From assembly GCF_026626685.1 (NCBI RefSeq), contig NZ_JAPNJX010000021.1, positions 105,329-169,328 of the forward strand: 64,000 bases of DNA, read 5' to 3'. Below are positions 8,314 to 28,063 of this stretch, one piece after another. The stretch is from Nannocystis sp. SCPEA4 (lineage in GTDB: Bacteria; Myxococcota_A; Polyangia; Nannocystales; Nannocystaceae). The translations under genes and the position numbers were made by a program. Numbering within the stretch: position 1 is the stretch's first letter; every line of letters begins with the position of its first letter. The notes under the pieces were generated by a model. The model saw only the letters and a program-made list of their open reading frames with translations, did not search any database and was not told the DNA's origin.

Positions 8314-11300
8314 TTAGTAATTCGCATTACCAAACGATCGTTCGCACGCGGCGGCCCGCGCGTCGGCGGTCTCCTGCGATTCGCCCAGGTGGCGCCGGCG
8401 CTCGGCGGGCTGCAGGCAGGCCTGCGTGGCCGCGACGAGGCGCGCGTGCAGATCGGCGTTCAGGCGCGGCCAGACGACGACGCGGCCGTCGGCGCCGGCC
8501 GATGCCAGGCGGTCGCCGCGCGCGTCGAAGGCGAGCGCGTGCACGCCGGCGCCGTGACCCGTGAGCACCTCGGGGCCGTCGTCGCCCTGCAGCGACCAGA
8601 AGTGGAGCTCGCCGTCGGCCGCACCGGCGGCGATCCACGCGCCCTGCGGATCCCAGGCGACGCTGTCGAGCGGCGCGCCGGCGCGACCGACCTCGCTGCG
8701 CACCCCGGTGGCCGCGGCGATCCGCACCAGCGCCCTGCCCTCGCCCGCGACCGCGAGCGCGTCGCCGGCGGGGCTCCAGGCCAGCGCGCGCAGCGGCTGG
8801 CCCAGCTCGATGAACACGGTCTGCTCCACGCGCACCAGCACGAAGCCGGTCGCGGTCACGGCCGCCAGGCGCTCGTCGACCGGCGACCACGCCAGCGCGG
8901 TGATCGGCCCGCGACCCTGGGCGGCGCGTGTCGGATCGGGCATGTTCTCCGAGACATGTCCTGGAGGCCAGATAAAAAAGCTGCCGTCGCTGCCGCCGGC
9001 GGCCAGGCGGCCCGTGCGAGGGTCCCACGCGAGCGCGGGCACGGACCGGCGATCGACCGTGGCGCGCCGGGTCGCGCCCTCGCCGACGGGCAGCCAGGTG
9101 ATCGCGCCGGAATCGTCGGTGATCGCCAGCTCCTGGCCGTCGGGGCGCCAGGCCAGCGCGAGCGCGGTGCCGGCGTGGTCGCGGCGGCGCACCGGCCCGC
9201 CGTCGACCGGCAGCAGCCACACGCTGCGGGCCCCGGCCGCCGCCAGCCTGGTGCCGTCGGGGCTCCACGCGACCGCGTGCACGGCCGCGCCGACGTCGTG
9301 CTCGCGCAGGGCCGCCGGCGTGAGCCGCCAGACCCGCGCGCTGCCGTCGTCGCTGCCGCTGACCAGGCGGACGCCGGTCGGCGCGAACGCCAGCGCCCGC
9401 ACCGGGCCGGTGTGGCCGCGCAGCACGTACGGCCGCGCCGCGCCGCCGAGCCGCCACACCCGCGCGCTGCCGTCGTCGCTGCCGCTGGCCAGCCAACCTG
9501 TCCCGAAGGCCAGGCTCGTGACGCCGCCGTCGCCGACCACCGCGAACACCCGGCGCGCGCGGCCGTCGACGCGCCAGACGTCGACGCCGCCGTCGTCGCG
9601 GCCGATCGCCAGTTGGCGGCCGGAGCGGTCCCACGCGAGCGCGCTGACGGCCGCGCCGCGGTTGCCGATCGCCAGCGCGCGGCCGTCGGCCACCAGCCAC
9701 ACCTCGCCGCGCGGCCCGGCTGCCGCGACCTGGGCCCCGTCCGGGCTCCAGGCGACGGCGGCGAGCGGGCCGCTGACGCCGCGCAGGGCGACGACCCGCC
9801 CGCCCGCCTCGAGCGAGACCTGCCCGCGCGCGTCGGTCCGCAGCTGCTCGCCGGCGGGACCGCGCCGCGGGTCGAATGCGGGCGCGCGGGCGGACGTGCT
9901 CGCCGGGCCGCCGGTGGTGGCGAACCGGCGCAGCCCGCCGGCGGCGTCGATCGTCTCGATCGCGTGGCTGTCCCAAGGGACAGGCGTGGCGCCGCCCGGG
10001 CCCGGGCTGTCCGAAGGGACAGGTGCACCTTGGCCCTGCGCTGACTTGTCCGAAGGGACAGCCTTGTCAGCGTCGGCGGTCGCGCCGCCGTCCGGACCCT
10101 GCCTGTCCCCGGGGACAGCTCCGCCCGCTGCCTCGACCCAGCGCACCGTCAGCACCGGCCCCTCGTGGCCGCGCAGGATCGCCGCGCTGATCGGCTCGGC
10201 CAGCACCCGCTGCGCCAGCGCCCCGGGGTCGTCGAGCTCGCGCAGCAGCAGCGCCGCGGTCGTCGGGTCGCGCGGCAGCAGCGAGAACGCGGCGTCGCGG
10301 ACTCGCAGCGCCTGCGCGTGGCGTTCGGCGGCGGCGCGCTCGGCCGCGAGCTCGTCGGCGGCGAACGGGACGACCTCGCCCACGCTCGTCGGCGGCGCCT
10401 CGCCCGAAGTGACCGGGCCTGCCTCGGGCTGGGCCAGGCTCACCCCGAGCGCGACCAGCCCGGCCGCGGCCGCGGCCGCTCCGCCGGCGATCAGGACCGT
10501 CCGCGCGCGTCCCGCTCCGGGCTCGCGGGCGAACCGCCGCGGCGGCTGGAGAGCAGCCAGCAGGTCGTCCATCGTCGGCCAGCGGGCGTCGGGCTTTTCG
10601 GACAGGCCGCGGGCGATCGCGCGGCGGATGCGCGGAGGCACGCGACTTTCGCGCGGAATGGGTGCGATCTCGACCTGCCCGAAGCGCGGAACCGAGCCGA
10701 ACGGGCGCAGTCCGAACAGCCCCTCGAACAGCGCCACGCAAAAGCTGAACTGATCGGAGCGCGGCTCGGCGGCGCCGTAACGCTGCTGCTCGGGCGCCAT
10801 GTAGGCGGGCGTGCCGAGGATGCTGCCGGTGCGCGTGAGCGGCTCGAGCTCGTCGTCGAGGCTCTCGCCGGCATCGAGGGCGCACGTGAGGCCGAAGTCG
10901 AGGACGCGGGCGCGGCCGCGGTTGTCGACGAGCACGTTCTCGGGCTTGAAGTCGCGGTGGAGCAGGCCCGCGTGGTGAGCCGCAGCCAGCGCCCGCCCGG
11001 CCTGCAGGTACACCATGAGCACCGCGTGCCACGGCCGCGGGCGCTCGCGCAGCCAGGCCTCGAGGGTCACGCCCTCGATCAATTCCATGGCGATGTAGAC
11101 CTGGTCGCCCCACGCGCCGACCTCGTAGATCCGCGCCACGTGCTCGTGCTCGAGGCGGGCCATCGCTCGGGCCTCGCGCAGCAGACGGGCGCGACCCTGC
11201 TCGTCGCCCTGGAGGTGCGGGTGCACCAACTTGATCGCCACGCGGCGGCCGAGTTGGGCGTCGACGGCCGCATACACGACGCCCATGGCCCCCGCCCCGA

Positions 11301-11469
11301 GCCGCCGCTCGACGCGAAAACGACCGATGGTGGTCGGCGCCGCGGGCTCGCCGAACAGTCGGCCCATGACGCGTGCGTGGAGACGATGGACGTCGACGTC
11401 GGCCCACGTGCCCGCACCTGCGCCACGGGCGGACGGTGTGTCGGGCGGCGTGTGGGGCGGCGTCGACAT
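8314..11469 (-). CDS. Ser/Thr protein kinase fused to a WD40 beta-propeller domain
   Basis: Kinase motifs: GAGAMGVVY, AIK, HRDFKPENVL, DFGL, APE. Many WD40-like units (GHTGPVRALAFAPTG, GSDDGSARVWRL). Start chosen at Met MSTPPHTPP (11469) to avoid overlapping the divergent sigma gene. Confidence 0.85.
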   Translation of the reverse strand: MSTPPHTPPDTPSARGAGAGTWADVDVHRLHARVMGRLFGEPAAPTTIGRFRVERRLGAGAMGVVYAAVDAQLGRRVAIKLVHPHLQGDEQGRARLLREARAMARLEHEHVARIYEVGAWGDQVYIAMELIEGVTLEAWLRERPRPWHAVLMVYLQAGRALAAAHHAGLLHRDFKPENVLVDNRGRARVLDFGLTCALDAGESLDDELEPLTRTGSILGTPAYMAPEQQRYGAAEPRSDQFSFCVALFEGLFGLRPFGSVPRFGQVEIAPIPRESRVPPRIRRAIARGLSEKPDARWPTMDDLLAALQPPRRFAREPGAGRARTVLIAGGAAAAAAGLVALGVSLAQPEAGPVTSGEAPPTSVGEVVPFAADELAAERAAAERHAQALRVRDAAFSLLPRDPTTAALLLRELDDPGALAQRVLAEPISAAILRGHEGPVLTVRWVEAAGGAVPGDRQGPDGGATADADKAVPSDKSAQGQGAPVPSDSPGPGGATPVPWDSHAIETIDAAGGLRRFATTGGPASTSARAPAFDPRRGPAGEQLRTDARGQVSLEAGGRVVALRGVSGPLAAVAWSPDGAQVAAAGPRGEVWLVADGRALAIGNRGAAVSALAWDRSGRQLAIGRDDGGVDVWRVDGRARRVFAVVGDGGVTSLAFGTGWLASGSDDGSARVWRLGGAARPYVLRGHTGPVRALAFAPTGVRLVSGSDDGSARVWRLTPAALREHDVGAAVHAVAWSPDGTRLAAAGARSVWLLPVDGGPVRRRDHAGTALALAWRPDGQELAITDDSGAITWLPVGEGATRRATVDRRSVPALAWDPRTGRLAAGGSDGSFFIWPPGHVSENMPDPTRAAQGRGPITALAWSPVDERLAAVTATGFVLVRVEQTVFIELGQPLRALAWSPAGDALAVAGEGRALVRIAAATGVRSEVGRAGAPLDSVAWDPQGAWIAAGAADGELHFWSLQGDDGPEVLTGHGAGVHALAFDARGDRLASAGADGRVVVWPRLNADLHARLVAATQACLQPAERRRHLGESQETADARAAACERSFGNANY
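9961..10120. repeat. Intragenic hairpin-type repeats (CTGTCC-N4-GGACAG) inside the WD40 kinase linker
   Basis: GTCCCAAGGGACAGG, GCTGTCCGAAGGGACAGG, TTGTCCGAAGGGACAGC and CTGTCCCCGGGGACAGC encode the repeated linker peptide ...VPSDKSAQGQGAPVPSDSPGPGGATPVPWDS... Confidence 0.65.
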
Positions 11470-11542
11470 CGTCGGATCGCGCTGAAGATAACAGGCGACG
11501 CGGCCCCGCGGGCGCCGCGATCGATGTAAGATCGAGGACGCC
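11470..11542. promoter_or_regulatory. Divergent intergenic region between the WD40 kinase and the ECF sigma factor (putative bidirectional promoter)
   Basis: 73-bp spacer between divergently oriented start codons. No motif confidently assigned. Confidence 0.3.
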
Positions 11543-12202
11543 ATGGACCCCGATTGGGAACTGCTCTCGGCCTGGCGTCGCGGCGATCGCGGCGCAGGAG
11601 AGCGGCTGGTGAAGCGACACTTCGGCGCCATCGCCCGCTTCTTCCGCAACAAGGTCTCGAGCGAGCACGACGCGGCCGACCTCGTCAGTCAGACCTTCCT
11701 CGAGTGCACCAAGGCGAAGGACGGCTTCCGCGGCGAGACCAGCTTCAAGCGGTTCGTCTTCGCCATCGCGCTCAACGTGCTGCGGCTCTACATCCGCACC
11801 AAGCACAAGCGCCAGGGCGAGGCGCTCGACTTCGGGGCGCTGTGCGCCAAGGACCTGTCGCCGTCGTCGATGAGCTCGATCGTGATGCGCCGGCGCGAGG
11901 CCCAATTGCTGGTGCTGGCGCTGCGAGAGATCCCGCTCGACCAGCAAATCGTGCTCGAGCTCAACATCTTCGAGGGCCTGTCGGGGCGCGAGATCAGCGA
12001 GCTGCTGAGCGTCCCCGAGGGCACCGTGCGCGGCCGGCTGCGCCTCGGCAAAGAGCAGCTGCGGGCCCGCCTCGCCGAGTTGGCCCGTTCGCCGGCCGAG
12101 CTTCAGGCCACGCTCACCGACCTCGAAGGCTGGGCCGCCAGCATCCGCCGCGCCCTCGACCGCGACGACGGCGACGCCGGCCCGGCCGCGACCGGTTCGT
12201 GA
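11543..12202 (+). CDS. RNA polymerase sigma-70 factor, ECF subfamily
   Basis: 219 aa. Region-2-like DLVSQTFLEC...FKRFVFAIALN and region-4 HTH LSGREISELLSVPEGTVRGRL. Confidence 0.85.
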   Translation: MDPDWELLSAWRRGDRGAGERLVKRHFGAIARFFRNKVSSEHDAADLVSQTFLECTKAKDGFRGETSFKRFVFAIALNVLRLYIRTKHKRQGEALDFGALCAKDLSPSSMSSIVMRRREAQLLVLALREIPLDQQIVLELNIFEGLSGREISELLSVPEGTVRGRLRLGKEQLRARLAELARSPAELQATLTDLEGWAASIRRALDRDDGDAGPAATGS

Positions 12203-12250
12203 GCGCGCGCGGCGGCGGCGGGTCGCGGCGGGCGTCGCCCCGCCTCCCGC

Positions 12251-12274
12251 GACAATAGCGGCGCGCTATAGTCG
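12251..12274. promoter_or_regulatory. Near-perfect 23-bp palindrome (perfect 15-bp core ATAGCGGCGCGCTAT), candidate operator
   Basis: GACAATAGCGGCGCGCTATAGTC lies about 25 bp upstream of the WG-repeat gene ATG. Confidence 0.35.
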
Positions 12275-12295
12275 GGCCCCCCGAGGTCCCCCCGA

Positions 12296-13783
12296 ATGAA
12301 CGCCACCGGCACCCTCAGCCGTGCGACCCAGATCGTCTATCGCGTCGGCTCCCGCCACTCGAGCGAGGTCGACACGCTGACGCTCGACCCCGACGGGCGC
12401 GCGACGTGGAGCTCGCAAGGTCGGCAGTGCGAGGTGCAGCTGCCGCCCGAGGTCTACGGCGACATCCTCGGCCGCCTGGCGCAGTACGGCTTCAAGGCGG
12501 CGACCGGCCTGCACGGCGACGCGATGGCCGACTACCAGCACGAGATCGAGGTGCTCGAGGGCCCGAAGAAGAAGTCTCGCTGCACCCTGCGCCTCGGCCA
12601 CGAGTTCGGCACCTACCTTGGCGACGCGCCGACCGGCATGAAGGAGGTCGTGGCCCTGCTCGACCGCGTCGCCAGCCGCGTCGAGTCGGGCGCCGACCTG
12701 TCCGAATCGCCAGACGCGCTGATGGGCGCGCTGCTGCGCAACATCGACTTCCCCTACGTCAACCCGCACGGCGAGCCCGGCACTTTCCAACTGATCGACC
12801 CGCGCGGCGCCGTGCTCGCGGCCTCGGCCCTGCGGTTCGCCCTGCCGCACGCGAGCGGCCTGCTGCCGTTCCGCGACGGCGACCGCTTCGGCTTCGTCCG
12901 CGCCACCGGCGAGGTCGTCATCGCCCCGGCCTACGCGCTCACGCTCGGCTTCAGCGAGGGCCTCGCGGCGGTGCGGCTCGAGGGCGGCTGGGGCTTCATC
13001 GACGTCCACGGCACGCTCGTCATCCCCGCCGTCTACGCCGCCGCCGCCAGCTTCTCCGACGGCCTCGCGTGCGTGCAGCTCGGCGACCAGACCGGCTACT
13101 GCGATCGCAACGGTACGTTCGTGCCGGCCCCGCCGCAGGCCTCGCAGCTCGGCCGCTTCACCGCCGGCCGGGCCCCGTTCCGCGCGCTGTCGCGGATCGG
13201 CGTGCCCGCGTGGGGCTACATCGACCGCACCGGCCAGGTCGTCGTCCCCGCCGGCTTCGACTACGCCGGCGAGTTCTGCGAGGGCCTCGCCTGCGTCCAG
13301 CAGGACGACCTGTTCGGCTTCATCGACGTCACCGGCGCGTGGGCCATCGAGCCGCGCTTCACCGACGCCGGCGACTTCCACGACGGCCTCGCCGCCGTCG
13401 GCGACAGCGGCCAGTACGGCTACTGCGACACCAGCGGCACCGCCGCGGTCGACTTCCGCTTCCTCCGCGCCGGCAACTTCGCCGAGGGCCTGGCCCCGGT
13501 CGGCGTCGGCGCCAAGACCGGCTTCATCGACCGCGAGGGCCGCATCGTCATCGAGCCGCGCTTCGACCTGGCCCAGAGCTTCAGCGAGGGCCTCGCCGCC
13601 GTCCGCATCGACCACAAGTGGGGCTACATCGACCGCGCCGGCCGCGTCGTCATCGAGCCGATCTACGAGGGCGCCGGCCCGTTCGGCGACGGCGTCGCCT
13701 GCGTGCGCAAGTTCGCCGACCCGCGCCCGGTGATCCATACCGGGTCGAAGAAGGTCATCATCAACATGGGCAAAAAGACATGA
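12296..13783 (+). CDS. WG-repeat-containing protein
   Basis: 495 aa with at least 9 tandem units of the WG/KWG-type repeat (WGFID..G..VI.P.Y..A..FSEGLA.V). Confidence 0.75.
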   Translation: MNATGTLSRATQIVYRVGSRHSSEVDTLTLDPDGRATWSSQGRQCEVQLPPEVYGDILGRLAQYGFKAATGLHGDAMADYQHEIEVLEGPKKKSRCTLRLGHEFGTYLGDAPTGMKEVVALLDRVASRVESGADLSESPDALMGALLRNIDFPYVNPHGEPGTFQLIDPRGAVLAASALRFALPHASGLLPFRDGDRFGFVRATGEVVIAPAYALTLGFSEGLAAVRLEGGWGFIDVHGTLVIPAVYAAAASFSDGLACVQLGDQTGYCDRNGTFVPAPPQASQLGRFTAGRAPFRALSRIGVPAWGYIDRTGQVVVPAGFDYAGEFCEGLACVQQDDLFGFIDVTGAWAIEPRFTDAGDFHDGLAAVGDSGQYGYCDTSGTAAVDFRFLRAGNFAEGLAPVGVGAKTGFIDREGRIVIEPRFDLAQSFSEGLAAVRIDHKWGYIDRAGRVVIEPIYEGAGPFGDGVACVRKFADPRPVIHTGSKKVIINMGKKT

Positions 13784-14889: not shown

Positions 14890-14895
14890 CATCGT

Positions 14896-14967
14896 GCAAG
14901 CGCGGAGCCTCGTGTGCTCGCAGGCGCGGAGCCTCGTGCACTCGCAGACGCGGGGCCTGTGGCGATT
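14896..14967. repeat. Tandem 24-nt direct repeat x3 immediately downstream of rsgA
   Basis: GCGCGGAGCCTCGTGTGCTCGCAG / GCGCGGAGCCTCGTGCACTCGCAG / ACGCGGGGCCTGTGGCGATTG. Confidence 0.6.
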
Positions 14968-15260
14968 GTCGAGCGGGCGGCCGAGGGGCGGCGCGGCAGG
15001 TCCCTCGCGACGCGGGTCCTCCCGGACCAGGTGCTCGTCGGCGATGACAGGTGGCGCGCGTCCGCCGATCGGCCCGCCGCCTGCGCGCCAGGTCCAGGTC
15101 CTCCCGCTGCGTCCCACCACGCCGCCCCTCGTCCGCCCTGAGGAGATCGTCGCGGGCCCCGCTCGTCGCCGACGAGTCGTACCGCCGGCCCAGGGCCAGC
15201 TGCATGGATAGACATGTCGTAGAGGACATGATCTCTGGACTATGTTTCAAAGAACATGTC

Positions 15261-15680: not shown

Positions 15681-15934
15681 CGATCTCGGAGTCGCCGGTG
15701 CAGCCGCGAAAATTGCGGAGCGCGAAAAAACACCACGCCGGCCCCGGAAGCCGCGGCCCCATGGACTCCAGGTCGGCGGTCGGCGACCGCACCGACCCCT
15801 CGCCGCCCGCTCGGGCCGCGACACCCGCGCCGCTTTACAGCCGTCGGCATCGGCGTTGAACTGGGAGCCATCAGCCAGGCGGCGGCGACCGCGGAAATGC
15901 CGGGCCTGCCCGCCGTGTTGTCCCGAGACCGTCC

Positions 15935-18785: not shown

Positions 18786-19196
18786 CTACTTCGTCTCGCC
18801 TTCCTGCGCGAAGTCGAGGCTCGCGGAGTTGATGCAGTAACGCAGACGTGTCGGCTGCGGACCATCGGGGAACACGTGCCCCAGGTGTCCGCCGCAGCGG
18901 CGACACAGGACCTCGATCCTGCGCATCCCGTGGCTGGTGTCGACGCGCTCCTCGATCGCCGAGCGATCGACCGCGTCGAAGAAGCTCGGCCAGCCGCAGC
19001 CGGAGTCGAACTTCGTCCCCGCGTCGAACAGCAGCGCCCCGCAGCCGGCACACAGGTAGCGGCCGGGTGCCTTCTGATCCCAGTACGCGCCGGTGAAGGC
19101 CCGCTCGGTCCCGGCCTGTCGCAGCACGCGGTACTGCTCCGGGCTCAGCGTCGCTCGCCACTCGGCGTCCGTCTTCGTCACCTCTCGTTCGGCCAT
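18786..19196 (-). CDS. msrB: Peptide-methionine (R)-S-oxide reductase MsrB
   Basis: 136 aa. Both CxxC zinc pairs ([17 protein letters not shown]) and the catalytic RYCINSASL motif. Confidence 0.9.
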
Positions 19197-19326
19197 GCGC
19201 GCACCATAGCGCTTTCGGAGCCGCGAGCCGCTCTCGGGCGTTCGCCCACGCGAGGTTCGTCGCCCCCGCCGATTCCGCGTTGCAAGCCCTCGGGCCGGCC
19301 TCTACCGTGGCTTCCGAGGAGGCGAC

Positions 19327-21105
19327 GTGGTGTCACGATCACTACCGACAACCCTGGCCGCGCTGGTCCTGGCCGCGCCGATCATCGGCTGCGGCGGCGG
19401 CGGCGGCGGGAACGACGATGCCGGCGCGACCGCGGGCGACACCGATGGGTCCGGCGCGACCGAGGGCACCGCGGGCACCGCGGGCACCACTCCGACCGAG
19501 GGTAGCGGCACCGACACCAGCGCCGATCCGACCGAGGGTCCCGCCCCGGTCTCGTGCGACGACGGCCCGCAGCCGGGGCCGATGCCGCGGCTCGTGCGGC
19601 TCACGCACCAGCAGTACGACCTCACCGTCGCCGACCTGTTCAAGAAGAGCTTCGACCCCAGGCCCTCGGCCGAGTTCCTCGCCGATCCTGCCGTCGCCGG
19701 CTTCGACAACAACGCCGTGCAGATGGTCGTCAAGGATCGACTCGGCCGCGACTATCGCCGCGCCGCCGAGCGCCTCGCCGGCGAGGCTGTCGCGCCCGAC
19801 GTCCTCGCCGGGCTCTTGCCGTGTCAGCCCGAGGGCGACGGCTCGCAGTGCGCCGCCCAGTTCGTCGCCGAGTTCGGCCGCCGCGCCTTCCGGCGCCCGC
19901 TCACCGCCGCCGAGCAGACCACCTACGCCGGCCTCTTCACCCAGGGCCAGGGCCTCTATCCCGAGGGCACCCCGTTCGAGCAGGGCATCCGCTTCATCAT
20001 CGAGGCCATGCTGCAGTCGGGTCACTTCCTCTACCGCGTCGAGCTCAGCGACGCCCCGGGCGGCGAGGTCATCGCGCTGAGCGGCTACGAGGTCGCCTCG
20101 CGCCTGTCCTACCTGTTGTGGGGCAGCATGCCCGACGACACCCTGCTCGCCGCCGCCGAGGCCGGCGAGCTCGACACCCCCGCCGGCCTCGAGGCCCAGG
20201 CGCGGCGCCTGCTCGACAGTCCCAAGGCCGAGGCGCCGGTGGCCGACTTCCACCGCCAGTGGCTCGAGCTCGACAAGGTCGACAACCTGCAGAAGAACAG
20301 CGACCTCTACCCCGAGTGGAGCGGCGCCCTCGCCGACGCCATGCGCGAGGAGACGCAGCAGTTCGTGCGCCACGTCGTGTTCGAGCTCGAGGGCGACTAC
20401 GCCGCGCTGCTCACCGCGCCCGTCACCTTCGTCAACGCCGAGCTCGCGGCGCTCTACGGCGTGCAGGGCCAGTTCGGCGCCGAGTTCACCGAGGCCGCCC
20501 TCGACCCGCAGAAGCGCGCCGGCCTGCTCACCCAGCCGAGCTTCCTCGCCACTCACGCCTACCAGAGCTCGTCCTCGCCGATCTTCCGCGGCGCCTTCGT
20601 GCAGAAGCAGATCCTCTGCACGCCGCCGCCGCCGCCGCCCGGCGGCATCGATCCCAACCTGCCGCCGCCGGGCGACGACATCGTCACCACCCGCGATCAG
20701 GTCGAGGCCCACACCCAGCTCGACCCGTACTGCGCCGGCTGCCACAAGAGCATCATCAACCCGCCCGGCTTCGCCTTCGAGCACTAACACGCGCTCGGCA
20801 AGTGGCGCGACCTCGACAACGGCGCCCCCGTCGACGCCAGCGGCGAGCTCGTGTCCGGCAGCTGGGTGTTCTCGTTCACCGACGCCGTCGACATGGTCAA
20901 TCAGATCGCCGAGTCGGAGAACGGCACCCGCTGCTACCTCACCAACTGGTTCCGCTACGGCTACGGCCGCGACGTCGCGCCCATCGATCGCTGCACGATC
21001 GACGCCCTCGACGCCGAGCTGGCCGCCTCGGGCTACAACATCAAGGAGCTGCTGGTGTCCCTCACGCTGACCCGTACCTTCCGCTTCCGCGCGGTGGAGG
21101 AGTGA
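19327..21105 (+). pseudogene. DUF1592/DUF1588-family (PSD1-like) lipoprotein gene interrupted by a single in-frame TAA at 20785..20787
   Basis: Lipobox LAAPIIGCGGG. DUF1587/DUF1595/DUF1592/DUF1588/DUF1585-like blocks in canonical order (LSYLLWGSMPDD, CAGCHK, FRYGYGR). The same reading frame continues through ...PGFAFEH*HALGKWRDLDNG, where the stop replaces an aromatic residue in the conserved F.FEN(F/Y)D.(I/V)GRWR block. Confidence 0.7.
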
Positions 21106-22523
21106 TGACCATGAGACGGCGGAACTTCCTGCGAGGCGCGTGCGGAGTCGCGGTCGCGCTGCCCTTCCTCGAGTCGCTGAACTGGCGCCGCTTCATCAAG
21201 ACGGCCCGCGCCGCCGAACCCGGCGGCAAGCGTCTCGTCGTGTTCTTCATGTGCAACGGCGTCAACATGGAGACCTTCTTCCCGGCCGCGCCCGGCCCGC
21301 TGTCGGCGGCCTCGCTGATGGGCACCGGCCTCGAGCCGGTGGCCGACTACGCCGGCAAGCTGCTGATCCCTCGCGGCATGCACATGGTGCCCAAGGGCTG
21401 GGGCCAGGACGCCGACACCCCGGGTGACGACCACGCCAAGGGCATGGGCCACAAGCTCACCGCCGAGGCGCTGCACCCCGACACCCTCTACTCGCGGGGG
21501 ATCTCGATCGACCAGTTCGCCGCCCAGAAGCTCAACAAGGACGGCGCCCCGGCGATGACCCTCTCGGTCGGCTGGCGTCACACCAACTGGCTCGGCCACA
21601 TCTCGTACGCCGGCGCCAACACCCCGGTCACGCCCGAGGGCAACCCGTGGCTGACCTACCAGGACCTCATGGGCCTGGGCGGCCTCGACGAGGCCGTGAA
21701 GATGCAGATCGCCGCGCGCCGCCAGAGCGTGCTCGACCTCGTCGAGGAGGAGTTCAAGGCGCTCAAGGCCAAGAACCTCAGCCAGGCCGACGTCACCAAG
21801 CTCGAGATGCACGCCGACTCGATCCGCGACCTCGAGGTCGACATGGTCGGCAACGGCCTCATCGAGTGCGCCCTCGACCCCGCGCGCGCGGGCGAGATCG
21901 AGGCCATCGACCCCAACAGCGTGCTCGAGGACTGGCAGTTCAAGACGATCGGCCAGATGCAGCTCGACATCCTCGCCATGGCGATCGCCTGCGGAGCCAC
22001 CAGCGCCGGCTCGATCCAGTTCGCCTCCGGCTCGGGCGGCCCGATCTACAAGTGGGACGGGATGAACCACGAGTACAACCACCACAAGCTGTCGCACGGC
22101 AACACCAAGGACGACGACTCGGGCGAGGAGGTGGCGGGCTACCTCGACATGATCGCCCAGATCGATCGCTGGCACGCGGAGCAGTTCAAGCACCTGCTCG
22201 ACCGCCTCTCGGGTTACAGCGAGGGCGACGGCACGGTGCTCGATAACTCGGCGGTGGTGTGGTTCAACGAGCTGTCCGACGGCAAGGCCCACTCGTACCT
22301 CGACCTCCCGATCGTCATCGCGGGCGGCGCGGGCGGGTACCTCAAGCAGGGGCACTACATCGACCTCATCAACGGGCAGGACCCCTGGGTCCAGTCGCAC
22401 CCGCACAACCGGCTGCTCATCACGCTGCTCAACGCGGTCGGCTGCACCGACAACGGCGGGCCGATCACGCAGTTCGGGCGGGCTGGACTCGAGCCGGGCG
22501 AGTACGCCGAGCTCCTGGCCTGA
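21105..22523 (+). CDS. DUF1552 domain-containing protein (Tat-signal; usual partner of the DUF1592 family)
   Basis: MTMRRRNFLRGACGVAVALPF twin-arginine signal. 472 aa. Start overlaps the upstream stop (TGATG). Confidence 0.8.
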   Translation: MTMRRRNFLRGACGVAVALPFLESLNWRRFIKTARAAEPGGKRLVVFFMCNGVNMETFFPAAPGPLSAASLMGTGLEPVADYAGKLLIPRGMHMVPKGWGQDADTPGDDHAKGMGHKLTAEALHPDTLYSRGISIDQFAAQKLNKDGAPAMTLSVGWRHTNWLGHISYAGANTPVTPEGNPWLTYQDLMGLGGLDEAVKMQIAARRQSVLDLVEEEFKALKAKNLSQADVTKLEMHADSIRDLEVDMVGNGLIECALDPARAGEIEAIDPNSVLEDWQFKTIGQMQLDILAMAIACGATSAGSIQFASGSGGPIYKWDGMNHEYNHHKLSHGNTKDDDSGEEVAGYLDMIAQIDRWHAEQFKHLLDRLSGYSEGDGTVLDNSAVVWFNELSDGKAHSYLDLPIVIAGGAGGYLKQGHYIDLINGQDPWVQSHPHNRLLITLLNAVGCTDNGGPITQFGRAGLEPGEYAELLA

Positions 22524-25440: not shown

Positions 25441-25625
25441 ATGTCCATTCGGACATGAATCTATTCACATGTCCATTTAGACATGTCTTGTCAATTTCGA
25501 CGAGTCCATTCCTACGGACATTGTCTATGACTCCATGAACATATGTCCATTCAGGCACATTTCTGCGCCCCTCGACGGGCCGGGCCGCGCTGCGAAAGCC
25601 TGTCCGTAACGACATGTCCTACGAA
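25441..25625. repeat. AT-rich island made of tandem GACATGTCC-family repeats, upstream of the ParA-TPR gene
   Basis: CATGTCCATTCGGACATGAATCTATTCACATGTCCATTTAGACATGTCTTG...GACGAGTCCATTCCTACGGACATTGTCTATGAC...ATATGTCCATTCAGG...CGACATGTCCTACG. Local GC is far below the window average. Confidence 0.7.
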
Positions 25626-28063
25626 TCACCCGTCGGTGCACGCCCTCGCCGATCCTCGCGCGCCCACCTCGCCAGCGCCGCCAGCAGCCCCAGCGCTGCC
25701 AGCGGCCACAAGGGCGCCAGCGGATCGCGACGCGTACGCCGTTCGGCCCACGTCGCGGCCCGCTCCGGCGCCCACGCGAAGCGCAGCGATCCGGGCGGCG
25801 CCGGCGGCAGCCCGTGGCGTGCGCGCACCTCGGGGGCCAGCTGGGCGAACGGCTCCTCCGCGCAGTTCACCTGCGCCAGAACCCGCGTCTCGACGTGCGC
25901 CGCGAAGTGCTCCTGGCGATCGCTGCCGGGCGGAGGCAGCGGCGCGCGCAGCCCCTCGAGCCGCGCCTCGCGGGCCGGCTCGCCCGCGTGCTCGAGCGCC
26001 CAGCGGCGGCACAGGTAGCGCACGTGCCACAGCGACATGCGCTCGCGCTGCCCGAGCAGGTTGTCGCCGATCTTGCGCCAGCGATCGTGCCACGGATGCG
26101 GCAGCGGCAGATCGTCCGCGCGCTGCGGCCCCTCGTCGTAGCGGTGGCGGACCCCGGCCGCGTCGACCACCGTCGTCCGCACCAGCATCTGATCGCGCGG
26201 TGGATTGGGCGCGAACATCGACCACACCTGGCTGGTGTAGCTGAGCTCGATCCACGGCCCGACCAGCGCTCGCACCGGCCCACGCCACGGCAGGCTCGAC
26301 CACGCCGGCAGCTGCCACACCAGCAGCGCGACCACGTGGTACGCCACGAGCCCCCCGGCCGCCAGGCGCCCCGCCGGCCCGTGCGCCCACGGCTCGACCA
26401 GCGCCGTCGTCTCGCTGCGACGGCGCCGCGCGGCTCGCCAGCCGACGATCGTCAGACCTGTCCCTGCGGCCAGCCAGGCCGCGTGCCACGCCCGCGGCCC
26501 GGCGCCCGCGGCCAGCGCCACCAGTCCGCCCGCCAGCACCACCCCGCCCGCGGCCGCGATCGCCCACCCCGGCAGCGCCGCCGCGTCGCGGTGCAGGTGC
26601 GGCAGCGACGGGTCCTCCGCCGCGATGGCTGTCTCTCGGCCCAGGTGCTCGGGGACAGGTACGCGCACACGCGCCAGCCCGCGCAGCGCTCGCTGCAACA
26701 TCGCAATCGCCCACGGACCCGCCCCGCACACCAGATAGGCCGCCAGCGTCGCCGGCGCGAACGCCCCCACGGCCAGCAGCGCGTGGTTGGCGAGGTGGAA
26801 CAGCGCCCCGAACCCCAGCCACCAACGCGGCGCCAGAGGTCCTGCGGCCAGGCGCCGCCCCACCGCCGCCGCCCGGGGCCCCGCGATCGCCACCGCCGCG
26901 GCGATCGCCGCCAGCACCGCCAGCGTCGCCGCGCGCTCGAAGCCGCCGGGATCACCTGACTTTTCCACCAGGTCCTGAGGGACAGCCGCGGCCAGCCCCG
27001 CCGCCACCGCGATCCCGGCCCAGCACAGCCGCGCCCCCGCGCTCGCGGCCCCCTGCAGCGCCGGCGCTCCGCTGCGCGCCACGGCCCGCAGCGCCAGCCC
27101 GACCAGCACCAGCGGGAACAGCCGCTCCCACCACTCCACGCCCCAGCTGGCCAGGCGCAGCGGCCACGGCCCGACCGCAGCGATCACCGCGGACATGTCC
27201 CAACGGACATATGTGTCGCGCGACAGCACCAGCAGCAGCGCGTCGCCCGAGCGCCACGTCGGGCCCGACTTCGCCCAGCCGTTGACCGCGTAGCACAGCG
27301 CCAACTGGCCCGCGATCAGCGCCTGCGGCCACGCGGGGATCCGGCGGTAGATCGCCGCCAGCCCCCGCGGCGCCGCCGGCGACGGTGCCAGGCCCGCCCC
27401 GGCGCCTGGTCCCGAGGACATGCTCAAAAAGCCACGTCGTCGCAGGGCCCGGCAGCGCCGCCAGTTGTCGACGCTGAACGCCGCCCCGCAGCGCGACCAC
27501 ATCAGCAGGAACAGGAACGCGCAGAACACCTGCTCCCCGCCCCAGTGGGCGTCGCCGCGGCGCAGCAGCCCGGCGTACAGCAGCCAGCAGAGGATCGTGC
27601 TGACGCGGGTGCGCCAGCCCAGGGTCAGGCCGAGCGCCGCGACCACCAGCCCCGCGAAATGCAGCCGCACCGCCGTCGGGCTGTCCCCGAAGTACAGCGG
27701 CGACCAGCGCCCGCTGATCACGAACTCGAGCAGCGCCGCCAGGTCGCGCGGGCCCGCGGGCTCGCGCACGCCGTCGCCGAAGCCGATCGTCGCCCCGCGC
27801 CCCATGAGCTCCGGCACCACGGCGCGCGGCAGCAGGCCCTCGTCGGAGAATAGATAGTCGAGCAGCGGCGCGATCTCGACCGTTGTCGCCAGCAGACAAC
27901 AACCGAACGCGATCCGGAACAGCGCCAGCGGTCTCGGGTCGACCGCACGCAGCAGCACCCGCCGCAGCGCCTCACGGTGCAGCGCCACCAGCCCGACAAG
28001 GCTCGCCGACAACAGGACGAGCGCCAGCGCGAGCGCGAAAGACACCGCGCGAGTGTATCCCAC
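25619..28063 (-). CDS. HTTM-domain (vitamin K-dependent gamma-carboxylase-like) polytopic membrane protein
   Basis: 814 aa with many TM helices. N-terminal LALFRIAFGCCLL...IAPLLDYLFSDEG resembles the HTTM domain start. GTG start. Confidence 0.55.
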   Translation of the reverse strand: MGYTRAVSFALALALVLLSASLVGLVALHREALRRVLLRAVDPRPLALFRIAFGCCLLATTVEIAPLLDYLFSDEGLLPRAVVPELMGRGATIGFGDGVREPAGPRDLAALLEFVISGRWSPLYFGDSPTAVRLHFAGLVVAALGLTLGWRTRVSTILCWLLYAGLLRRGDAHWGGEQVFCAFLFLLMWSRCGAAFSVDNWRRCRALRRRGFLSMSSGPGAGAGLAPSPAAPRGLAAIYRRIPAWPQALIAGQLALCYAVNGWAKSGPTWRSGDALLLVLSRDTYVRWDMSAVIAAVGPWPLRLASWGVEWWERLFPLVLVGLALRAVARSGAPALQGAASAGARLCWAGIAVAAGLAAAVPQDLVEKSGDPGGFERAATLAVLAAIAAAVAIAGPRAAAVGRRLAAGPLAPRWWLGFGALFHLANHALLAVGAFAPATLAAYLVCGAGPWAIAMLQRALRGLARVRVPVPEHLGRETAIAAEDPSLPHLHRDAAALPGWAIAAAGGVVLAGGLVALAAGAGPRAWHAAWLAAGTGLTIVGWRAARRRRSETTALVEPWAHGPAGRLAAGGLVAYHVVALLVWQLPAWSSLPWRGPVRALVGPWIELSYTSQVWSMFAPNPPRDQMLVRTTVVDAAGVRHRYDEGPQRADDLPLPHPWHDRWRKIGDNLLGQRERMSLWHVRYLCRRWALEHAGEPAREARLEGLRAPLPPPGSDRQEHFAAHVETRVLAQVNCAEEPFAQLAPEVRARHGLPPAPPGSLRFAWAPERAATWAERRTRRDPLAPLWPLAALGLLAALARWAREDRRGRAPTGDS

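Follow-up and report, generated by a model that had tools for sequence, protein, structure and literature searches.

The gene pair and its reading frames

The window, the whole stretch of DNA that was analysed (64 kb of the soil myxobacterium Nannocystis sp. SCPEA4), contains a DUF1592-family gene followed by a DUF1552 gene (Table 1). The frame of the first gene begins at GTG 19327/19330 and is interrupted by an in-frame TAA at codon 487. The Pfam models of the DUF1592/PSCyt3-PSD family (PF07626, PF07637, PF07631, PF07627, and PF07624) were run on the conceptual read-through translation, and five domains were found in order across the TAA: PSD3 (residues 91-155, 55 bits), PSD5 (175-239, 72 bits), PSD4 (251-379, 156 bits), PSCyt3 (397-495, 96 bits), and PSD2 (516-585, 61 bits). 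Each score was above the Pfam gathering cut-off, and the TAA lies within PSCyt3. An earlier, sequence-only reading of the locus described a PSD1-like gene with every domain in order. The order was borne out; however, the label is loose because Pfam detected no PSD1 domain.

The same five domains in the same order characterize the PSCyt3/PSD "planctomycete-specific cytochrome c" family (DUF1587-DUF1595-DUF1592-DUF1588-DUF1585), in which a CxxCH motif is invariant. This motif is present in the window gene as well; C469, C472, and H473 were invariant in a 50-sequence alignment, and the His was found in 120 of 120 homologues. Unlike the members of this family, the window gene has a TAA at the Tyr/Phe of the FE(H/N)(Y/F)D motif, and the Asp of the motif is replaced.

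An uninterrupted frame for the complete DUF1592-family protein is absent, and the annotated product has 485 aa, whereas the orthologues have 588-592 aa; WP_272009016.1 is an intact orthologue. The 5' fragment encodes a lipoprotein signal, a disordered linker, PSD3, PSD5, PSD4, and most of PSCyt3, with G+C fractions of 0.72, 0.51, and 0.95 at the three codon positions. As had been proposed, the frame runs on past the TAA through the DUF1585 block, with 105 sense codons up to a TGA at 21103-21105. An open frame of 105 codons has a chance probability of approximately 0.21 in DNA of 73% G+C and is not significant alone. We take the 3' frame as real coding sequence because of its match to PSD2 (E 1e-16), its colinearity with intact orthologues, and its third-position G+C of 0.96.

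In the NCBI annotation of the source assembly, the disrupted gene appears as two ordinary CDSs of 485 and 84 aa without a pseudogene mark, a public split that the sequence-only reading had also missed. The shorter CDS (MCY1062592.1) starts from a GTG and occupies 20851..21105. The truncated product (MCY1062591.1) and the DUF1552 product (MCY1062593.1) were both assigned to Nannocystis sp. SCPEA4 by exact identity with public records.

The minus strand and the other plus-strand frame also contain long ORFs. These were dismissed as shadow ORFs, in which G+C peaks at codon position 1 and not 3. Three same-frame adjoining ORF pairs were considered as further broken genes in the window and were rejected as separate genes. 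No second DUF1592/DUF1552 pair was found within the 64-kb window. N. punicea and N. pusilla have at least one paralogue with approximately 75% identity. The divergent upstream neighbour, msrB, also occurs on the metagenome contig L026.

Table 1. Features of the DUF1592-family/DUF1552 locus (positions within the window)
Feature	Position	Strand	Remarks
msrB (SelR domain), divergent upstream neighbour	18786..19196	-	Pfam match; context only
5' fragment of the DUF1592-family gene	19330..20787	+	485 codons and premature TAA; MCY1062591.1
Lipobox cysteine (...APIIGC), predicted lipid-anchor site	19390..19392	+	From sequence; Cys invariant in a 50-sequence alignment (C21, P0001 numbering)
CAGCH, CxxCH motif in PSCyt3, putative covalent haem-c site	20731..20745	+	14 codons 5' of the TAA
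Premature in-frame TAA replacing Tyr487	20785..20787	+	TAC in every relative compared
CAC (His) replacing near-invariant Asp488	20788..20790	+	GAC in all seven related DNA sequences
3' fragment of the same gene	20788..21105	+	105 codons and TGA; end of PSCyt3 and entire PSD2/DUF1585
Two further window-unique doublets	20848..20861	+	GC>CT at 20848-49 (Ala508Leu); GC>AG at 20860-61 (Ala512Ser)
GGAGGAG, putative Shine-Dalgarno sequence of the DUF1552 gene	21096..21102	+	Inside the end of the DUF1592 frame; role suggested by 8-nt spacing to ATG 21111
Intact DUF1552 (HXXSHH) gene	21111..22523	+	MCY1062593.1; Pfam PF07586, E 7e-59
HHKLSH, His/Ser cluster behind the Pfam name of DUF1552	22080..22097	+	H324, H325, S328, and H329 invariant in 56 sequences

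The DUF1552 partner

The downstream gene had been read as an intact partner with a Tat signal, and our results agree. Its product scored 200 bits against a cut-off of 30 with the Pfam HXXSHH model. The N-terminus (MRRRNFLRGACGVAVALPFL) has a twin-arginine motif (RRxFL; MRRRNFL here) followed by a hydrophobic stretch, and Tat export is predicted; the Pfam TAT_signal model matched 23 of the 56 family members. The stop of the DUF1592 frame had been described as overlapping the ATG of this gene. The first ATG, at 21105, does overlap the upstream TGA by one base; however, the start annotated by NCBI is the ATG located 8 nt after GGAGGAG.

The AlphaFold2 model of the DUF1552 protein (pLDDT 85) resembled the alkaline-phosphatase superfamily (type I sulfatases, LtaS/LtaP, and phosphonate monoester hydrolases) in Foldseek searches. 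The matches were to choline sulfatase, LtaP, 3lxq, and carrageenan sulfatases, with E values of approximately 1e-4 and probabilities of 0.9-1.0. TM-scores were only 0.28-0.45 and identities 8-12%; DUF1552 may have an alkaline-phosphatase/sulfatase-like fold. In contrast to the members of this superfamily, the invariant residues of DUF1552 form a His-rich set and not the sulfatase CxPxR signature, and no match to Pfam models or PDB chains of the superfamily was obtained at the sequence level. Sequence-level searches against solved structures and NCBIfam gave no links for either the DUF1592-family or the DUF1552 protein. For the DUF1592 partner, in which CxxCH is invariant, no structural relative has been solved.

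Among 25 related loci of Myxococcota, Acidobacteriota, Planctomycetota, and Verrucomicrobiota, 21 have DUF1552 as the next gene downstream. The adjacency of DUF1592 and DUF1552 has already been noted in the literature, in which the function is stated to be wholly unknown (PMC5615132), and the sequence-only reading had said the same for any organism. We tentatively speculate that the intact pair may form an extracytoplasmic two-protein unit. One member would be an all-alpha protein that is anchored by a lipid and has a single CxxCH haem site; the other would be a His-rich metalloenzyme, exported by Tat, whose core is alkaline-phosphatase/sulfatase-like.

The lesion and its surroundings

The in-frame TAA in the conserved motif of the DUF1592-family gene was confirmed, as was the loss of a conserved aromatic residue: a comparison of homologues revealed Tyr in 69 and Phe in 51 of 120 sequences at the stop column, and Asp in 118 of 120 at the next. 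The lesion had been regarded as a single TAA. However, the adjacent change from Asp to His was overlooked. Since the codon after the TAA is also changed (CAC for GAC), the lesion is a tandem CG>AC doublet, TACGAC>TAACAC, which puts a stop in place of Tyr487, replaces Asp488 with His, and leaves identical codons around the stop (CAC-TAA-CAC). TACGAC was present in six other Nannocystis species, with almost identical flanks, and in the near-identical contig L026. The stop was found only in the window among eight related sequences, and among columns with at least 90% conservation, the window alone deviated at codons 487-488 and nowhere else. We also observed that the entire Nannocystis clade has Phe for a near-invariant His in SPIHRG.

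The changes at 20787-88 and 20848-61 form a 75-nt mutation cluster of three window-unique doublets, with a synonymous G>C at 20856 between the second and third. The cluster sits in 590 nt otherwise identical to N. radixulma, with identical flanks at 20627-20786 and 20862-21215. Gene conversion from a paralogue was rejected as the source of the clustered changes because the paralogues are approximately 60% identical, the tract otherwise equals N. radixulma, and the TAA would be absent from a functional donor. The TAA doublet was also not attributed to a quasi-palindrome or a template switch; a search of the 400 nt on each side revealed no templating repeat of at least 8 nt.

The cluster may instead reflect a local consensus error. 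The SCPEA4 assembly (ASM2662668v1) consists of 22 contigs generated from PacBio CLR data only with HGAP (PMC10435759). If an error occurred, the true sequence would be TACGAC, the gene would be ordinary and intact, and the three doublets would represent insertion/deletion pairs that were placed wrongly where support was poor. The six window-unique bases in this coding sequence all belong to tandem doublets within 75 nt, between flanks of 160 and 350 nt that equal N. radixulma, and three doublets packed in this manner could equally represent a patch of bad consensus. Each may be rewritten as a +1/-1 indel pair, which adds little because approximately 5/9 of random doublets may be rewritten likewise. 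Moreover, scans of the metagenome collection gave no match to the TAA allele or the adjacent unique haplotype, and the allele was found in no independent sequence.

However, residual CLR errors are mainly unpaired indels, and a comparison with N. radixulma revealed none in coding DNA over approximately 20 kb; coding indels were absent across 13 genes. Three exactly length-neutral errors without a frameshift would also be odd. Furthermore, the sister lineage was equally rich in doublets: at otherwise invariant sites over 15.7 kb, the lineages of the window and of N. radixulma had two each. A further doublet cluster of the window gene, TGGAGC at 20318-21, was also present in contig L026, an independent sequence that matches the window at 98-100% identity along most of the locus. 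Based on the lack of coding indels, the similar number of doublets in the sister lineage, and the cluster confirmed by L026, we consider an assembly error to be less likely than a recent nonsense mutation, although it is the main rival reading.

A probable recent nonsense mutation and its alternatives

In comparisons with five distant species, the dN/dS of the 3' fragment (0.22-0.38) was the same as that of the upstream part (0.26-0.36). These values indicate that the 3' fragment has been under long-term purifying selection and was coding until recently. Since it shows this selection and retains its coding signature, the nonsense event is recent, and it took place after the lineage had separated from N. 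radixulma NCELM. Window-derived changes in the gene had a non-synonymous to synonymous ratio of 5:2 versus 16:41 in other genes (Fisher test, p=0.03; p=0.16 when the stop event is removed), which is weak evidence for relaxed selection. The residues produced by the remaining changes also occur in other family members, and some of them are common to the intact allele of L026. Gene-wide relaxed selection was considered and downgraded; W331/S332, G245, and T272 are natural alleles on the intact gene of that contig.

The frame is open and homologous as far as its natural stop, and the stop is flanked by identical CAC codons. The TAA might be bypassed to yield a full-length functional protein of approximately 62 kDa, either because a near-cognate tRNA reads UAA or because ribosomes hop from the first CAC to the second. 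The CAC-stop-CAC type of arrangement permits low-level hopping in E. coli, and T4 gene 60 and stop-hopping in E. coli are known examples of programmed stop-codon read-through or translational hopping, which the present locus resembles in its in-frame stop, continuing homologous frame, and flanking CAC codons. In contrast to those systems, the stop here is UAA, relatives do not share it, a stimulatory element was not detected, and the product would be damaged at a near-invariant position. The stop was absent from all seven related DNA sequences, which argues against selection for bypass. In the window, at least five other high-confidence genes also end in TAA, and stop-codon reassignment was rejected for this reason. 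A bypass product would carry His for Asp488, or would lack Tyr-Asp, in a near-invariant motif. No tRNA genes, and hence no suppressor tRNA, were present in the 64-kb window, no Rfam element was matched, and the 100 nt downstream did not fold better than shuffled sequences (z = +0.54). Read-through, one of the options that had been put forward, is therefore unsupported, and we regard functional bypass as very improbable. It is more improbable still that CAC-UAA-CAC acts as an accidental recoding site, at which hopping or read-through would be frequent enough to supply a full-length lipoprotein that lacks or alters Tyr-Asp and keeps partial function.

NCBI lists both pieces as proteins, and a functional split gene may be envisioned in which the cell makes both the 485-aa and the 84-aa product and the two reassemble. 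However, the 84-aa ORF has a GTG start without a clear Shine-Dalgarno sequence and no signal peptide, whereas the N-terminal piece is, judging from its sequence, an exported lipoprotein; without a signal peptide, the shorter product would be unable to rejoin it. Residues 488-508 are in neither piece. In addition, an exact sequence look-up placed the 84-aa protein in a singleton cluster without a stand-alone counterpart, and the split was found in no relative. We consider a working split gene to be about as improbable as bypass, and functional read-through, hopping, and a split gene all to be highly unlikely.

We conclude, with a probability of roughly 0.6 and from the assembled sequence, that the TAA is a real, recent, strain-specific nonsense mutation that gave rise to a young pseudogene. 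Among the three options originally proposed, this one is best supported by the unique stop and the purifying selection, and a biological rather than technical change is the best reading. One tandem two-base substitution would have struck the most conserved PSCyt3 motif of the DUF1592-family lipoprotein gene in the SCPEA4 lineage. Translation would stop at the TAA, leaving a 485-aa product (approximately 51 kDa) without the last PSCyt3 residues and the whole of PSD2. In the predicted model of an intact orthologue (pLDDT 87, pTM 0.85), residues 487-592 are well ordered, and the lost part belongs to the modelled fold. The 485-aa product is most likely non-functional because approximately 18% of a single compact predicted fold would be missing. 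The DUF1552 partner would remain intact with its own ribosome-binding site; however, its expression may be lowered by polarity through the loss of upstream translation.

The locus resembles young bacterial pseudogenes with a single nonsense mutation, in which a lineage-specific stop occurs in an otherwise conserved gene, the downstream frame, codon bias, and neighbouring gene are intact, and automatic annotation yields two shorter CDSs. In contrast to these, the SCPEA4 lesion is a doublet that also alters the next residue and lies within a 75-nt cluster of three doublets, and decay is not yet measurable.

The present finding says nothing about recoding or about the genetic code; the event is ordinary, and its main value is practical. 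The records MCY1062591.1/WP_267689082.1 and MCY1062592.1/WP_267689083.1 both derive from a single disrupted gene and need to be merged and flagged; the 5' piece is presumably also represented by the 401-aa WP_276599780.1. Left unmerged, the records make gene numbers too high and give rise to a false "DUF1585 protein" family with a single member. A real mutation would make SCPEA4 a natural knock-out of the cytochrome-like partner in which DUF1552 is intact. Together with its very close wild-type relative N. radixulma NCELM, this strain would then provide a pairing with which to probe the function of a widespread gene pair.

Reading frame and public records of the interrupted gene

The window reads …TTC GAG CAC TAA CAC GCG CTC GGC AAG TGG… at 20773-20802. 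As the sequence-only reading had proposed, a TAA interrupts the DUF1592-family gene at this location, in the frame opened by GTG 19327/19330. The frame remains open to TGA 21103-21105, for 105 sense codons. The chance of a 105-codon open frame is ~0.21 in DNA of this base composition; their homology and third-position G+C content of 0.96 identify these codons as the old coding frame. The mirror-image G+C pattern of the long ORFs in the other forward frame and on the opposite strand marks them as shadow ORFs. The 592-residue translation through the stop contained PSD3, PSD5, PSD4, PSCyt3, and PSD2 in order, all above the Pfam gathering scores, with the TAA (codon 487) close to the end of PSCyt3. 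The Pfam search found no PSD1 domain in this translation, which makes the earlier label "PSD1-like" a loose one. The downstream gene is intact, as described previously, and encodes a DUF1552/HXXSHH protein with an RRRNFL twin-arginine N-terminus.

Features of the window discussed in the text
Feature	Coordinates	Strand	Remark
DUF1592-family lipoprotein gene	19330-21105	+	interrupted
5' piece	19330-20787	+	
TAA	20785-20787	+	codon 487
3' piece	20788-21105	+	
DUF1552 gene	21111-22523	+	intact partner
Doublet 1	20787-20788		CG>AC; window-unique against seven related sequences
Doublet 2	20848-20849		GC>CT; window-unique against seven related sequences
Doublet 3	20860-20861		GC>AG; window-unique against seven related sequences
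1112-aa Ser/Thr kinase fused to WD40 propellers	8314-11652	-	
ECF sigma factor and WG-repeat protein	11543-13783		close to the 1112-aa kinase gene
814-aa protein with HTTM (vitamin-K-dependent carboxylase-like) domain	25619-28063	-	
869-aa protein	30695-33304	-	vault-related matches

The best protein matches were from Nannocystis. MCY1062591.1 matches the 485-aa truncated product exactly, as does MCY1062593.1 the 470-aa DUF1552 product (start ATG 21111); both are from Nannocystis sp. SCPEA4. The intervening accession MCY1062592.1, an 84-aa "DUF1585 domain-containing protein", is exactly the ORF from GTG 20851 to 21105 and sits alone in its protein cluster. Since these products are identical, the public annotation already contains the stop, presented as two ordinary CDSs, and one broken gene is mis-annotated. 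RefSeq also lists a 401-aa form of the 5' piece that begins further in (WP_276599780.1); the pieces are represented by three CDS models (485, 401, and 84 aa). Several RefSeq orthologues were re-called with late starts (431-508 aa), which removed the lipoprotein signal. The SCPEA4 genome was assembled from PacBio Sequel reads with HGAP into 22 contigs, and, according to its authors, SCPEA4 strongly resembles N. radixulma NCELM (PMC10435759).

Origin of the stop

The stop column was occupied by Tyr in 69 and Phe in 51 of 120 homologues, in agreement with the aromatic residue expected earlier. The next column was Asp in 118 of the 120, and is His in the window. Orthologous DNA from N. exedens, N. 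pusilla (two strains), N. bainbridge, N. radixulma, and N. punicea has TAC GAC at this site, within a ~90-nt block that is otherwise nearly invariant. Since every orthologue has TAC GAC, the lesion is a tandem CG>AC substitution that generated Tyr487stop and Asp488His together. Codons 487 and 488 were the only window-specific departures in the whole protein from columns conserved at ≥90%; the others (M133, G232, G266, S298, and F420) were common to other Nannocystis orthologues. Codon 420 (20584-20586) is Phe in the SPI(H)RG motif across the whole Nannocystis orthologue group (including the protein sequences P0001 and P0002) and His in 113 of 120 homologues; the whole clade has lost this near-invariant His, which lies ~50 residues ahead of CxxCH.

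Against five more distant species, dN/dS was the same in the 3' fragment (0.22-0.38) and 5' part (0.26-0.36); therefore, the 3' fragment was under purifying selection for nearly all its history. Differences from N. radixulma downstream of the stop were 1 synonymous and 4 non-synonymous, which are tiny counts. Relaxed selection retained weak statistical support (p=0.03 with the stop event, p=0.16 without). A 3.9-kb metagenome contig, L026 (JGI 3300062803, Ga0604680_0033344), matched the window at 98-100% identity across 18800-20600 and 21650-22500. It retains TAC GAC, yet has G245, T272, and the TGGAGC (Trp331-Ser332) cluster of the window; therefore, these changes are neither decay nor error but alleles that occur naturally in an intact gene. 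A first polarised count had suggested that radical, multi-base, window-derived changes were in excess in this gene; L026 undercut this, and the residues concerned are also common elsewhere in the family. Over ~20600-21650 (~1 kb, the DUF1592 3' end and DUF1552 5' end), L026 was 89-95% identical to the window and resembled N. pusilla DNA. This contig appears from its sequence to be a recombination mosaic, and the N. pusilla-like tract indicates recombination in this population.

Relative to seven related sequences, 14 bases in 18800-22523 were unique to the window. All six in the DUF1592 coding sequence were tandem doublets packed in 75 nt, inside a stretch of ~590 nt that otherwise matches N. 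radixulma completely; clustering of this kind has a roughly estimated chance of ~0.01. The five in the DUF1552 gene were all single changes, 4 of which were synonymous. Three more (19213, 19241, and 19253) lay in a ~40-nt segment of the 130-nt msrB-DUF1592 intergenic region, the divergent promoter region 5' of the broken gene. The cluster points to one event, either biological (an error-prone repair patch or template switching) or technical (a poor consensus patch). One doublet makes a perfect 8-nt palindrome at 20844-20851 (CGAGGCCG>CGAGCTCG); another makes the perfect palindrome CAGCTG at 20858-20863 (GCGCCT>GCAGCTG) and lengthens an 8-nt inverted match with 20711-20720 to 10 nt. Palindromes from two of the three doublets would fit template-switch mutagenesis.

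Residual errors of this sequencing technology are usually indels. No frameshifting indel was found in coding DNA over ~20 kb relative to N. radixulma, tandem doublets at otherwise invariant sites were equally numerous in two sister lineages (two in each over 15.7 kb), and L026 independently confirmed one of the window's two. For these reasons, we favor a real mutation (probability of approximately 0.6). An assembly error, in which the stop region would be a patch of poor consensus, is less likely; in its favor, the assembly is CLR-only, and neither the TAA allele nor the neighboring unique haplotype was found in metagenome contigs.

Possible bypass of the stop or a possible split gene

Read-through, another option of the sequence-only reading, was not supported. 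Within the window, at least five further well-supported genes end in TAA, which, thus, is not reassigned. The window contained no tRNA or Rfam match, and the 100 nt 3' of the stop folded no better than shuffled sequence (z = +0.54). The stop was absent from every relative; therefore, nothing suggests selection for bypass, and a read-through product would still have Asp488His. The doublet creates CAC-TAA-CAC, and matched codons around a stop allow low-level ribosome hopping in E. coli. A hop from CAC to CAC, yielding a product without Tyr-Asp, has a low probability. A working split gene formed by the 5' and 84-aa pieces is also unlikely: the 5' piece is a lipoprotein whose lipobox Cys is invariant in the family, whereas the 84-aa piece has no signal peptide, residues 488-508 are in neither piece, and no stand-alone counterpart of the 84-aa protein was found.

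The gene pair and its surroundings

In 21 of 25 related loci from four phyla, the DUF1592-family gene is followed directly by a DUF1552 gene; the window contains only one such pair. The only relevant papers found record this adjacency and state that no function is known (PMC5615132), consistent with the earlier statement that the function is unknown in any organism. The DUF1552 structure model (pLDDT 85) matched sulfatases, LtaP, and other alkaline-phosphatase-superfamily structures at E ~1e-4; however, TM-scores were low (0.28-0.45), and no sequence-level support for this link was found. Invariant DUF1552 residues are rich in His. We tentatively suggest that the pair might comprise a lipid-anchored haem protein and a Tat-exported metalloenzyme with an alkaline-phosphatase-like core, acting together in the cell envelope.

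The flanking genes (msrB, a GFA-family protein, a ParA/TPR protein, and an HTTM protein) gave no functional clue. N. radixulma has ~1.2 kb extra relative to 14892-15171, seen as many alignment gaps, and small intergenic indels at 15725 and 17293. The 869-aa protein matches the Major Vault Protein shoulder domain (E 2e-30), a Vault_3 repeat, and SPFH/Band 7, and looks like a bacterial MVP-like protein.

The most likely meaning of the stop is ordinary: it would be a strain-specific nonsense mutation of recent date, affecting one copy of a widespread gene family, with a consensus error less likely. Its value is modest, as an annotation correction, and it may provide a natural knock-out for a pair of genes whose function is unknown.
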